A DNA stretch of 63,930 bases, filler included, from Actinomycetota bacterium (GTDB lineage Bacteria > Actinomycetota > CADDZG01 > JAHWKV01 > JAOPZY01), in the NCBI GenBank assembly GCA_025963875.1. It is 7 parts of 7 records of this genome, joined end to end, with 100 filler letters (N's around TTAATTAATTAA, not from the genome) between each part and the next. Parts side by side here need not be neighbours in the genome. Positions count along the whole stretch, not along the records: positions 13,425 to 26,483 come from JAOPZY010000095.1; 6 more parts are not named here. One strand, 5' to 3'. The notes beneath the pieces are model-generated. The model did not search any database. It had not been told where the DNA came from and was given only the letters and a program-made list of their open reading frames with translations. The position numbers and the translations under genes were made by a program. Of this stretch, positions 22,875-26,414 are shown one piece after another; within the stretch, counting starts at the first letter, position 1; every line of letters starts with the position of its first letter.

Positions 22875-23129
22875 ATGGTCGATATCCCCGCTCGTGACCT
22901 ACGCAACGACGTCAGTGCGGTACTCCGCCGCGTCGAGGCCGGTGAGCATTTACGCGTGACGGTGAGCGGCCGCCCAGTCGCCGAGATCGTGCCCTTGCCG
23001 AAACGGCCACGGTCGATCCCCTGGGACGCCTTCATCCAGGGAAGTGAACGCTGGCGAGCGGATCCTGGGTTACTCGACGAGCTCGAGGATCTCTTGCCGG
23101 GCACGACCGACGATCTCCCAATGGCATGA
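22875..23129 (+). CDS. vapB: Phd/YefM-family antitoxin
   Basis: IPARDLRN..VLRRVEAGE...VTVSGRPVAEIVP; ATGA overlap with PIN toxin. Confidence 0.92.
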   Translation: MVDIPARDLRNDVSAVLRRVEAGEHLRVTVSGRPVAEIVPLPKRPRSIPWDAFIQGSERWRADPGLLDELEDLLPGTTDDLPMA

Positions 23130-23536
23130 CTGCCCGCACAGGCGGGACGGGCGCCGAAGAGGCACTTGCCGACACATCGGTCTTCGTTGCGGTCGAGCAG
23201 GACCGGCCACTTTCTGGCCCCCCACCCGAGCGCGTCGCCGTATCAGTGATCACAGTCGGTGAGCTCCGCCTCGGGGTCCTGGGGGCGGACAGCGGGTCAG
23301 TACGGGCGCGGCGCTTGGAGACCCTGTCGGCGGCAGAGGCGCTTGACCCCCTGCCTATCGAAGCGCGGGTTGCCCACGCCTGGGCCGCCCTGCGCCTCGC
23401 ACTGCGCGATGCGGGGAAGCGAATGCCCATCAACGACTCCTGGATCGCGGCCACCGCGATCGCCAATGGCATGCCCGTCGCCTCCCAGGACGAGGACTAC
23501 GACGACGTGCCCGGGCTCGAGGTCATCCGAGTCTGA
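23126..23536 (+). CDS. vapC: VapC PIN-domain toxin
   Basis: DTSV, ITVGEL, INDSWIAATA, QDEDY acidic residues. Confidence 0.93.
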   Translation: MTARTGGTGAEEALADTSVFVAVEQDRPLSGPPPERVAVSVITVGELRLGVLGADSGSVRARRLETLSAAEALDPLPIEARVAHAWAALRLALRDAGKRMPINDSWIAATAIANGMPVASQDEDYDDVPGLEVIRV

Positions 23537-23703: not shown

Positions 23704-23706
23704 CTG

Positions 23707-23792
23707 TGCCGGGAAGGGGACTTGAACCCCTACGGGCCGAAGCCCAATGCGGTTTGAGCGCATCGCGTCTGCCGATATTCCGCCATCCCGGC
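23707..23792 (-). tRNA. tRNA-Leu(CAA)
   Basis: GCCGGGA acceptor, anticodon arm ATGCG-CTCAAAC-CGCAT, variable arm GGGC-TTCG-GCCC, GGTTCAAGTCC T arm; CCA not encoded. Confidence 0.95.
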
Positions 23793-23855
23793 CAAATAAC
23801 TCAACTGGTATATTATGCCGCACCAACTCGCTGAGCAGTCGAAGTCTAGTCGGCA

Positions 23856-24596
23856 TCAGACCTTTGGCCCGATCACGGAGTCCAGTTTGGCGACGTCGCC
23901 TGATCGCGAGACGGAGATGGTCACGGAGTTCGATTGCGTCCACCGGACACCGAAGTCATCGCACGCCCTACAGAAGATAGCCCTGATGTCGGGGGAAAAG
24001 TTGGTGAACTGGTACCGAGGGTACTCATAGGGCACCCCTCTGGTCCTCACCCTGTTGATCCCACGGCAGCCGTCGGAGTGGATGAGACCGCGCAATAAGC
24101 GGGCCGGATGATTTCCAACTATGTCGACTTGCCACTCAGCCAGCTCGATCTTGCGGCGGTGTTTCATTCCCGGGCCGTGTTGCGGGAAAAGGCAAGGCCA
24201 ATGCTTCCAGCACGAGTAGACCTCCACGCAGCGATCCTGACGCTGCCGGGCGCCAATGCGACCCTCGACTCGCACGGCCGCCATCGCGTCCCGTGCCTCA
24301 CCGAGAATGCCTGGATAGCCGGCATCGAGGTAGACGCTGAGTCTGAACACTCGACGCGGGCATTCGACGATGTGCCCGTCCCCCAGGTAGAGCCCCAACA
24401 GGTATGCGTAGGCTTCAGGACCGAGGTTGGCGGCATTGCCACACAGTGGGCAGAGATGCGGCTGCTGTGCAGGGGGCTGAGTCCGCCAGTTGCGGACCGT
24501 CGTCAGCGGCACGCCGGTCTGCCGGACGATCTCACAGTTGTTGGCGCCGGATGCTATCAGCGCCCGCACAGCCTCTCGGTCTTCGAGCGATCGCAT
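23856..24596 (-). CDS. HTH + double LAGLIDADG-like homing-endonuclease-fold protein
   Basis: N-terminal HTH (CEIVRQTGVPLTTVRNW), CPLC, motifs AYLLGLYLGDG and LLRGLIHSDG, YPRYQFTN. Confidence 0.88.
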   Translation of the reverse strand: MRSLEDREAVRALIASGANNCEIVRQTGVPLTTVRNWRTQPPAQQPHLCPLCGNAANLGPEAYAYLLGLYLGDGHIVECPRRVFRLSVYLDAGYPGILGEARDAMAAVRVEGRIGARQRQDRCVEVYSCWKHWPCLFPQHGPGMKHRRKIELAEWQVDIVGNHPARLLRGLIHSDGCRGINRVRTRGVPYEYPRYQFTNFSPDIRAIFCRACDDFGVRWTQSNSVTISVSRSGDVAKLDSVIGPKV

Positions 24597-24620
24597 GAGC
24601 AGCCCCGTCCTGGCCGGTAA

Positions 24621-24636
24621 TCGAACGTCTGTTCGA
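24621..24636. promoter_or_regulatory. LexA (SOS) box
   Basis: TCGAACGTCTGTTCGA is a perfect match to actinobacterial TCGAAC-N4-GTTCGA, 24 nt upstream of the LAGLIDADG-like ATG. Confidence 0.88.
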
Positions 24637-24701: not shown

Positions 24702-26414
24702 ATGGCTGATCGGGACTTCGACGTCGTCGTGGTGGGCAGCGGGTTCGGCGGCAGCACCGCCGCGCTGCGGCTCACCGAGAAGGGGTACCGGGTCGCGGTC
24801 CTCGAGGCCGGCCGGCGCTTCGACGAGACCACCTATCCCAAGACGTCGTGGCGGACCCGCTCCTTTTTCTGGGCCCCCAGATTGGGCTGCACGGGCCTCC
24901 AGCGCATCACCCTCCTGCGGGACGTCATGGTGCTCTCGGGGGCCGGCGTCGGCGGCGGGTCGCTCGTCTACGCCAACACCCTCTACGAACCCCTGCCTGC
25001 CTTCTACGCCGACCCGCAGTGGGCGCACATCACCGACTGGGCTGCCGAGCTTGCCCCCTACTACGACCAGGCCCGGCGGATGCTCGGCGTCGTCCCCAAC
25101 CCGACCATGACCCCGGCCGACGAGGTGATGCGGGACGTCGCCGAGGAGATGGGCGTCGGGGACACCTTCCACACCGCCCCGGTCGGCGTGTACTTCGGAC
25201 CGCCCGGAACGGCGCCGGGGACCGAGACCGACGATCCCTTCTTCGGGGGCGCCGGGCCCGCACGGCGCACCTGCATCGAGTGCGGCGAGTGCATGACGGG
25301 CTGCCGGCACGGCGCCAAGAACACCCTGCTCAAGAACTACCTGTACCTGGCGGAGCAGGCGGGGGCGACCGTCGTCCCGCTCACCACCGTGACTGCGATC
25401 CGGCCGGACGAGAGTGGCTACCTCATCGAAACGCAGGCAACGGGAACCTGGAGCCGAACCAAAAAACAGACCTACCGGGCCCCCCAGGTCGTTCTGGCCG
25501 CGGGCGCCCTCGGCACCCAGCGGCTCCTGCACCGCATGCGGGACGACGGCGTCCTGCCCGACCTGTCGGCCCGCCTCGGGGAGCTGACCAGGACGAACTC
25601 AGAGGCCATCCTCGGCGCCCGGACCTTCCATAGCGACGAGGACTTCACCCGTGGCGTCGCCATCACGTCGTCGTTCCACCCCGACGAGCACACCCACGTC
25701 GAGCCGGTCCGCTACGGGAAGGGCAGCAACGCCATGGGCCTGCTGGGCACGGCGCTGGCCGACGGCGACAAGGGACCACGCCCGCTCGCCTGGCTGCGGG
25801 AGGTCGCCCGACACCCGGCGATGGTCGCCCGCGATCTCAGCCTGCGGCGCTGGTCGGAGCAGACGATCATCGCCCTCGTCATGCAGACCCGCGACAACTC
25901 CATCACGTGCCATCTCAAGCGGGGGCTCCTCGGCCGCCGCCTGACGAGCAAGCCCGGCCACGGCGAGCCCAACCCCACCTGGATCCCCGTCGCCCACGAC
26001 GTCGTGCGCCGGATCGCCCAGCGCATCGGCGGCCTCGCCGGAGGCGGCATCAACGACGTCGCCAACATCCCCATGACCGCCCACATCATCGGCGGGGCCG
26101 TGATCGGCGACTCGCCAGCCACGGGCGTCGTCGACCCGTGGCAGCGGGCGTACGGGCACGAGGGCATCCACGTCGTCGACGGCTCTGCCGTCTCGGCCAA
26201 CCTCGGCGTGAATCCTGCCCTCACCATCTGCGCCCAGGCCGAGCGGGCGATGGCGTTCTGGCCGAACAACGGCGACGCCGACCCCGGCCTCCCCTCGGCT
26301 CGGCCTACGAGCGTGTCGAACCGGTCCCGCCCATCGAGCCGACGGTGCCCCCGACAGCGCCGGGGGCGCTCCACCTGCCCATCAGGCCCCAAGGAGGAAG
26401 CCCATGACCACTGA
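24702..26414 (+). CDS. choD: Cholesterol oxidase (GMC oxidoreductase), apparent frameshift near C-terminus
   Basis: GSGFGGS, GAGVGGGSLVYANTLY, CIECGECMTGCRHGAKN, TAHIIGG, NLGVNP; the expected tail RPPLGSAYERV continues in another frame to 26407. Confidence 0.9.
   Translation: MADRDFDVVVVGSGFGGSTAALRLTEKGYRVAVLEAGRRFDETTYPKTSWRTRSFFWAPRLGCTGLQRITLLRDVMVLSGAGVGGGSLVYANTLYEPLPAFYADPQWAHITDWAAELAPYYDQARRMLGVVPNPTMTPADEVMRDVAEEMGVGDTFHTAPVGVYFGPPGTAPGTETDDPFFGGAGPARRTCIECGECMTGCRHGAKNTLLKNYLYLAEQAGATVVPLTTVTAIRPDESGYLIETQATGTWSRTKKQTYRAPQVVLAAGALGTQRLLHRMRDDGVLPDLSARLGELTRTNSEAILGARTFHSDEDFTRGVAITSSFHPDEHTHVEPVRYGKGSNAMGLLGTALADGDKGPRPLAWLREVARHPAMVARDLSLRRWSEQTIIALVMQTRDNSITCHLKRGLLGRRLTSKPGHGEPNPTWIPVAHDVVRRIAQRIGGLAGGGINDVANIPMTAHIIGGAVIGDSPATGVVDPWQRAYGHEGIHVVDGSAVSANLGVNPALTICAQAERAMAFWPNNGDADPGLPSARPTSVSNRSRPSSRRCPRQRRGRSTCPSGPKEEAHDH

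Follow-up and report, generated by a model that had tools for sequence, protein, structure and literature searches.

A predicted damage-inducible LAGLIDADG homing endonuclease family linked to tRNA-Leu genes in Actinomycetota

The window locus and its protein

The window, i.e., the whole 63,930-nt stretch of DNA analyzed here from an Actinomycetota bacterium (assembly GCA_025963875.1), carries an intact gene for a protein of 246 amino acids at positions 23856..24596 on the minus strand. Its stop codon lies 63 nt from the 5' end of a co-oriented tRNA-Leu(CAA) gene (23706..23792, minus strand), as the sequence-only reading had described. The spacer between them (23793..23855, minus strand) is replaced in a close relative. 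The tRNA has an enlarged D loop and is the sole Leu(CAA) gene found in the assembly. On the 5' side of the protein gene, a motif scan recovered an exact TCGAAC-N4-GTTCGA, which we take to be the actinobacterial LexA consensus, at 24621..24636 (no strand assigned), 24 nt from the ATG. This box is the single exact match in the window and one of four in the whole 3.84-Mb genome. Two neighbors serve as context only: a divergent cholesterol-oxidase-like (GMC) gene at 24702..26414 and, on the 3' side of the tRNA, a Phd/PIN (vapBC-type) pair at 22875..23536, both on the plus strand. The toxin-antitoxin genes on this side of tRNA-Leu(CAA) differ between genomes, being of the Phd-PIN kind in the window (22875-23536), PIN in G001 (L094:998-1411), and PemK-type in G004 (L095:1655-2614). 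No att-like repeat or integrase signature was found at the window locus. Scans of it for sigma-70 promoters and terminators gave no match, which has no bearing on read-through into the tRNA.

The reading frame lies outside any intron or intein and is free-standing; the protein has no Pfam intein domain and the locus matches no intron family, in agreement with the initial description. An N-terminal helix-turn-helix (HTH; residues 9-38, 24483..24572) forms three helices in the AlphaFold model (pLDDT 94). It is followed by a linker with a CxxC motif (C49 and C52, 24441..24452) and by two LAGLIDADG motifs (24375..24410 and 24069..24107), all on the minus strand. The Pfam matches to HTH_23 and LAGLIDADG_3 are both below cut-off. 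The model nevertheless has the two-helix LAGLIDADG fold (alpha-beta-beta-alpha-beta-beta-alpha). Matching by Foldseek and VIA aligned it with double-motif LAGLIDADG structures over 157-173 residues at Z 15.9-15.1 and rmsd 2.5-3.3 Å, namely the TliVMA intein nuclease (Z 15.9), I-Tsp061I (15.2), WhiA (15.2), and I-DmoI (15.1). An acidic residue follows each helix at the catalytic position, D73 (24378-24380) in motif 1 and D175 (24072-24074) in motif 2, both in register with the corresponding motifs of I-DmoI. The HTH and the two motifs with retained acidic residues, first read from the nucleotide sequence, are thus borne out by the model. D73, G74, D175, and G176 are invariant in all 178 full-length members, 164 bacterial and 14 viral. 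LAGLIDADG_3 was found in 14/14 viral members, and their profile aligns with I-DmoI across both motifs (E 5e-7). The CxxC motif is present in the window protein and in most bacterial members (C49 in 155/164, C52 in 118/164, in a gappy region), but it is lost in most phage members and is therefore not core to the family. On the strength of the model, the gene likely encodes a monomeric double-motif LAGLIDADG homing endonuclease.

Homologues made up 7,735 of the 7,992 scored candidates, with 1,080 clusters at 50% identity (E below 1e-30). Databases name members "transcriptional regulator" or "HTH protein". PHROG gave no informative family match, and no description of the family was found in the literature searched, a scope outside which lay the SOS/PafBC regulon supplements and most subscription papers. 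I-DmoI, I-Tsp061I, and TliVMA/PI-SceI share the fold (Z 14-16) and the two acidic motifs in register. Unlike these intron- or intein-encoded enzymes, to which its identity is 10-20%, the window protein is free-standing, has an extra N-terminal HTH, and carries the conserved linker motif FPQHGxGxKHxR.

WhiA/DUF199 likewise joins an actinobacterial LAGLIDADG fold to an HTH (Z 15.2). In WhiA, however, the HTH is C-terminal, catalytic residues are absent, and the gene is a stable host gene. The window protein has its HTH at the N-terminus, matches no WhiA Pfam family, and lacks the WhiA_N/LAGLIDADG_WhiA/HTH_WhiA architecture. With its family's invariant acidic positions and a patchy rather than stable vertical distribution, identity with WhiA was ruled out. 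A search for HTH_WhiA in the organism's own assembly (G000, 94.6% complete) gave no match, which decides nothing.

Linkage to tRNA-Leu, distribution and promoter motifs

The sequence-only reading had proposed tabulating tRNA adjacency among homologues, and the association turned out to be almost restricted to one isotype. Within 250 nt of the gene, the nearest tRNA is Leu at 161 of 172 distinct genome loci (CAA at 106, TAG at 40, CAG at 15) and Trp(CCA) at five; 60 of the 172 loci come from two genera. Relaxed scoring mislabelled two further loci, L058, which is really Leu, and L342, which is really Trp. The four loci with no nearby tRNA comprise a partial Leu at an N run, a second tandem copy, a contig end, and one true miss. 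In 80 metagenome loci that form an independent sample, the neighbor is Leu at 77 and Trp at two, and one locus has no tRNA. Among 16 distinct viral loci (26-40% identity), 15 adjoin a Leu tRNA chosen from mixed tRNA clusters. Leu(GAG) was never the neighbor in the genome or metagenome loci. In the protein tree (FastTree, without formal test), members from different host classes cluster largely according to the isoacceptor. A single genome was seen to carry the gene twice, at Leu(CAA) and at Leu(CAG). At the genome loci, the tRNA lies upstream on the same strand (88), upstream on the opposite strand (49), downstream on the same strand (20), or downstream on the opposite strand (9).

Several arrangements depart from a single gene at a single tRNA-Leu. 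Tandem full-length nuclease genes stand behind a single tRNA-Leu(CAA) in L346 (G214) and L347 (G229). The phage contigs L099, L101, L108, and L113 contain four or five different tRNA-Leu isoacceptors in runs around the gene. The loci by tRNA-Trp(CCA) are of a Thermoleophilia type (L015, L037, L040, L057, L064, L071, L335, L342), and the D arms of these tRNAs are also very diverse. A target switch from Leu to Trp is possible in these.

The gene is patchily distributed. It is present in 39/301 genomes of the phylum and in 11/41 relatives (a tally that includes the unpublished G009), and in 0/5 genomes of its own family. The 111 Mycobacterium genomes contain 27 intact, 15 broken (one of which may be an assembly break), and one weak copy, with none found in 68. 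In the 81 Streptomyces genomes there are 46 intact, nine broken, and three weak copies, with none found in 23. Purifying selection acts on the intact copies (median dN/dS 0.17 and 0.37). Empty sites are also seen: the flank gene lies a median of 69 nt from the tRNA in 34/40 non-carriers and 822 nt in 28/29 carriers, and the promoter hexamer is kept in 10/40 non-carriers. Filled and empty alleles thus coexist, with the invasion, decay, and loss that characterize a free-standing homing endonuclease. No match was found in 72,556 plasmid records of PLSDB or 50,697 cultured-phage records of INPHARED, nor in a viral scan that used the single window protein as query. Six weak viral matches (L450-L455) and L114, all distant LAGLIDADG relatives with no Leu linkage, were left out.

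The genome of the window has exact or relaxed LexA boxes before recA, lexA, a UvrD helicase gene, a DUF222-HNH gene, a radical-SAM gene, dnaB, and a TnpB-like gene. Since such boxes stand ahead of recA, lexA, the UvrD helicase gene, and others, the box is a real SOS-type operator in this genome, and the window gene has it in its promoter, as expected of a LexA regulon member. With boxes also before the DUF222-HNH and TnpB-like genes, this genome has several SOS-boxed mobile nucleases. As a separate observation, recA contains a LAGLIDADG intein-like insert, the radical-SAM gene an intein match, and dnaB an apparent insert (L305, L308, L310, L307, L312).

Across the family, the 200 nt upstream of 86 loci contained a LexA box at 26, a PafBC/RecA-NDp-type motif (in the consensus that we assumed for the upstream scans) at 24, and either at 49; the background of 1,707 windows gave five and 13, respectively. 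One or the other motif was present at 38/73 metagenome loci. The PafBC-type motif occurs at 26/27 Mycobacterium loci, and neither motif at any of 30 Streptomyces copies. The expectation that homologues carry LexA boxes therefore stands as an enrichment (26/86 vs. 5/1,707) but not as a universal rule, PafBC-type motifs being found in many lineages and neither kind in Streptomyces. The PafBC regulator and its promoter are documented, by name only, in the available text of PMC6789036 and PMC8223512. It had also been considered that the box might regulate only the divergent cholesterol-oxidase-like choD; homologues that carry the box without choD argue against this, although the two genes could share the operator. 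At eight loci (L010, L021, L024, L033, L042, L046, L047, L055), the LexA box is separated from the gene by 141-153 nt; it precedes tRNA-Leu(CAG) and in most of them stands between this tRNA and a divergent tRNA-Glu. Judging from this layout, the tRNA-Leu(CAG) gene at such loci may be under SOS control.

Variation and breakage of the linked tRNA

The window tRNA and the allele of G001, a non-carrier of the same genus, differ in the D arm only. In soil-run comparisons, which rest on single contigs, one at depth 4, a contig from another run is a close carrier with a ~95% identical gene, whose tRNA differences all fall at 23764-23782 and give it the D arm of G001, and a second run shows two D-arm changes with the 5' end and spacer replaced. 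Because the close carrier shares its D arm with the non-carrier G001, there is no simple split between filled and empty alleles. Even close carriers thus show rapid turnover of the D arm. The window's class was surveyed in 26 genomes found with the window tRNA, one relic being left out; linked D arms are 6.0 edits from the common Leu D arm in seven carriers vs. 2.6 in 18 non-carriers (p 0.0007, uncorrected for kinship), and 5.8 vs. 2.7 (p 0.003) when the unpublished G538, G030, and two near-duplicates are removed. The window allele is the least deviant of the seven. No such difference separates the carriers from the non-carriers of Mycobacterium (3.9 vs. 3.6 edits, p 0.33); repeated sweeps through the genus would predict this, but so would the rival explanations. 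Linked and empty alleles differ in the window's class and in phages L098 and L105, and share a D arm in one carrier/non-carrier pair. Thus, of the proposed comparison of filled and empty alleles, the existence of empty sites was upheld, but a simple allele split was not, and the Mycobacterium test showed no difference (p 0.33).

In two genera, the tRNA at the gene's address is hypervariable. The linked Leu(TAG) of Mycobacterium was found in 86/111 genomes at 74-100% identity to one query, with only four at ≥95%; Leu(CAG) is 98-100% identical in 107/111, and Leu(CAA) at least 95% identical in 98/109. Among 30 Streptomyces carriers, the linked Leu(CAA) has 28 distinct sequences and 23 D arms, and both 74-76-nt and 84-87-nt forms occur at one locus, i.e., the tRNA switches between short and long arms. 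Leu(CAG), at 97-100% identity in 66/81 Streptomyces genomes, served as the control instead of Leu(TAG), which is HNH-flanked and also variable (9/81 matched one allele). Variation is highest in the D arm and anticodon stem, and pairing is kept. Concerning the flanks of Leu(TAG), the Streptomyces bcp-rdgB interval (L295:2-1464; L297, L298, L301) has one or two HNH-endonuclease genes directly 5' of the tRNA, and relics and empty sites exist. These are candidates for a second, unrelated tRNA-Leu homing family. In the available text of PMC6582537, mycobacterial tRNA clusters hold HNH genes and LAGLIDADG is not mentioned.

The tRNA changes together with the gene. In Mantel tests on 25 loci per genus, from which loci lacking usable flanks were dropped, tRNA distance tracks gene distance after control for the flanks in Mycobacterium (r 0.23, p 0.013; flank term nil) and in Streptomyces (r 0.27, p 0.002), where the flank term has the value 0.27 as well. 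In the latter genus, the tree of the flanks is rejected by the alignment of the gene (delta logL 1240). The two flanks reject each other's trees too (delta logL 122), which implies high background recombination. Sister loci with flanks 86-92% identical have genes of different clades and different tRNA types, and long-arm tRNAs accompany 9/14 genes of one clade and 0/11 of the remainder. The rejected flank tree and these joint gene-tRNA swaps between sisters speak against the strictly vertical phylogeny that would have counted against a homing element, and they are consistent with biased inheritance of the locus. The phage loci L102 and L103 are 94.6% identical and have unlike Leu(TAA) alleles. 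When the Streptomyces gene is divided in two, divergence follows that of the tRNA for the N-terminal half (r 0.31, 0.25) but not for the C-terminal one; the half-gene signal is weak in Mycobacterium. The Streptomyces loci L235-L264 are far more divergent in the N-terminal half than in the C-terminal half. Domain swapping, giving chimeric nucleases, is hinted at in Streptomyces and is offered as a lead.

Broken tRNAs give a further clue. Stumps of the 5' part of tRNA-Leu occur at 6/16 distinct viral loci (L096, L097 twice, L098, L099, L105, L107), two of them read by eye, and stop at or just past a ...GGTAGAC-type motif, at the 3' strand of the D stem. The 3' stumps at two bacterial loci, L084 and L091, the only bacterial loci with stumps, start just beyond the viral end point; none was found among 80 metagenome loci. 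The stump breaks correspond to about 23763-23767 of the window tRNA. Together, the 5' and 3' stumps would confine the break to a few bases, which is what cleavage by a LAGLIDADG enzyme would leave, and a site of 20-odd bases centered on it would span the D loop to the anticodon. In phage L098, the ORF splits a tRNA gene, with the acceptor and D arm upstream and the T arm and acceptor right after the stop codon. An intact short-arm tRNA-Leu(CAA) (L098:3127-3200) also lies in frame within the HTH-nuclease linker; its acceptor stem is that of the split tRNA, and its D arm is different. In L105, a 5' stump is accompanied by a Leu(TAA) gene (L105:3121-3195) that is likewise embedded in frame, in the linker between the HTH and nuclease domain. 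A tRNA gene inside a nuclease reading frame, as in these two phage copies, is an unusual gene overlap.

Predicted homing, rival explanations and significance

From these comparisons, we predict with a probability of roughly 0.7 that the gene encodes a homing endonuclease, free-standing and inducible by damage, which cleaves the tRNA-Leu alleles of rivals close to the D stem. Repression of the gene would be lifted by DNA damage or by incoming DNA, at a time when RecA is available. The protein would then make a double-strand break in a tRNA-Leu site that extends from D loop to anticodon (the predicted recognition region, 23754..23783 on the minus strand of the window, is placed by the stumps elsewhere), breaking rival alleles near the 3' strand of the D stem. 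A site of this extent would explain the isoacceptor-specific lineages. The gene's own linked allele would be a poor substrate, and repair off the donor DNA would copy this tRNA allele and the adjacent gene by gene conversion. In a converted population, the gene would decay and be lost, leaving the altered tRNAs; re-invasion by new variants would recode the essential single-copy tRNA repeatedly. The fold, acidic motifs, linkage, patchiness, empty sites, hypervariability of the linked tRNA, swaps, stumps, and promoter motifs support this prediction. Against it, other Leu isoacceptor genes have similar D arms and would have to escape cutting, the fold is matched just as well by WhiA (Z 15.2), and stumps are rare outside phages. 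Streptomyces copies have neither promoter motif, Mycobacterium carriers do not stand out in D-arm deviation, one D arm is shared by a carrier and the non-carrier G001, the Streptomyces flanks point to high background recombination, and no plasmid or cultured-phage record matched. The damage-induced element homing on tRNA loci that the sequence-only reading had proposed is thus supported by neighborhoods, decay, allele swaps, and stumps, its nuclease activity being predicted, and the stumps and linkage sharpen the proposal to tRNA-Leu and the D-stem region.

The same features could belong to a defense nuclease kept by the host. Such an enzyme would be induced by damage or infection and cut incoming phage, plasmid, and integrative DNA with ordinary tRNA-Leu; the linked tRNA would be immune, and homing a side effect. 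The two kinds of host stress promoter, the purifying selection, the intact copies in 46/81 Streptomyces genomes, and the several Leu tRNAs carried by the phages here fit this explanation. Yet decay and loss are frequent, phages themselves show the same layout with split tRNAs, defense does not need tRNA adjacency, and PADLOC gave no match for the three members tested; we regard this explanation as unlikely. Alternatively, another force (tRNA-cutting toxins, anticodon nucleases, or phage pressure) may diversify the tRNA, the gene being cargo at a recombination-prone spot. Confinement to ≤250 nt of Leu/Trp tRNAs would not be expected of cargo. Many copies lie 5' of the tRNA, the window locus shows no att-like repeat, stump ends fall in the D stem, and the variable isoacceptor shifts with the location of the gene, being TAG in Mycobacterium and CAA in Streptomyces. 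Although toxin-antitoxin genes lie next to tRNA-Leu(CAA) in the window and in both G001 and G004, and although non-carriers too have variable alleles, this possibility is quite improbable.

It is also conceivable that the protein is a domesticated factor, resembling WhiA or a maturase, which binds to the tRNA-Leu gene or its transcript and tunes expression or processing in the SOS response, since WhiA structures score as high as nucleases and databases name the family a transcriptional regulator. At several Solirubrobacterales loci, the gene and tRNA could share a transcript with a LexA box before the tRNA. However, all four orientations occur, and the tRNA is downstream on the same strand at only 20/172 loci, which disfavors the co-transcribed factor that had been raised as the second possibility for the window gene. 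Moreover, both acidic residues are invariant, the gene is patchy, decaying, and swapped between sisters, and the tRNA hypervariability and stumps would be left unaccounted for. We consider this explanation highly improbable.

A broader form of the homing prediction is that an arms race of chromosomal homing endonucleases keeps rewriting an essential single-copy tRNA-Leu in Actinomycetota. The elements would cut the tRNA-Leu of rivals, including rival carriers, bring in a recoded tRNA, and swap their N-terminal half. They would switch the tRNA between long-arm and short-arm architectures and would have joined both damage regulons of actinobacteria; at Streptomyces tRNA-Leu(TAG), an HNH family unrelated to them would act likewise. 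That all of these parts hold together is put forward tentatively, at slightly less than even odds.

In the intronless homing of T-even phages, the genes for SegF, SegG, and MobE lie near, not in, their targets, and the linked allele is thought to resist cutting. Unlike the window family, these nucleases have protein-coding phage targets and other folds. A closer parallel in layout is SegB of phages T4/T6, a free-standing GIY-YIG homing endonuclease in tRNA clusters. According to the available text of PMC2330249, which also names SegF, SegG, and MobE, SegB cleaves within tRNA genes and promotes its own homing along with that of adjacent tRNA genes. It shows no isotype preference, according to the available text of PMC13096335. 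Like SegB, the window family is a free-standing nuclease gene beside tRNA genes. SegB, however, is a GIY-YIG enzyme known from phages that reads a universal T-loop motif and cuts many tRNA genes. The window family has a LAGLIDADG fold, is Leu/Trp(CCA)-specific and mostly chromosomal, and is associated both with promoters of the damage response and with a recoded linked tRNA, with predicted cleavage indicated at the D stem. Membership of the SegB family was ruled out by the LAGLIDADG fold and the absence of a GIY-YIG Pfam match; in place of an any-isotype association, the neighbors are almost only Leu or Trp(CCA).

tRNA genes are among the most conserved sequences in bacteria, yet in Mycobacterium and Streptomyces a single leucine tRNA of each lineage is close to strain-specific. 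The nuclease family offers a direct, testable cause for this, and could account for the coexistence of long- and short-arm tRNA-Leu(CAA) in Streptomyces. Genes annotated as transcriptional regulators would, in their thousands, be re-annotated as likely selfish nucleases. Intronless homing, as in T-even phages, would be extended to bacterial chromosomes, with SOS/PafBC control, and thousands of natural pairs of enzyme and immune allele on one small scaffold would form a data set for LAGLIDADG specificity.
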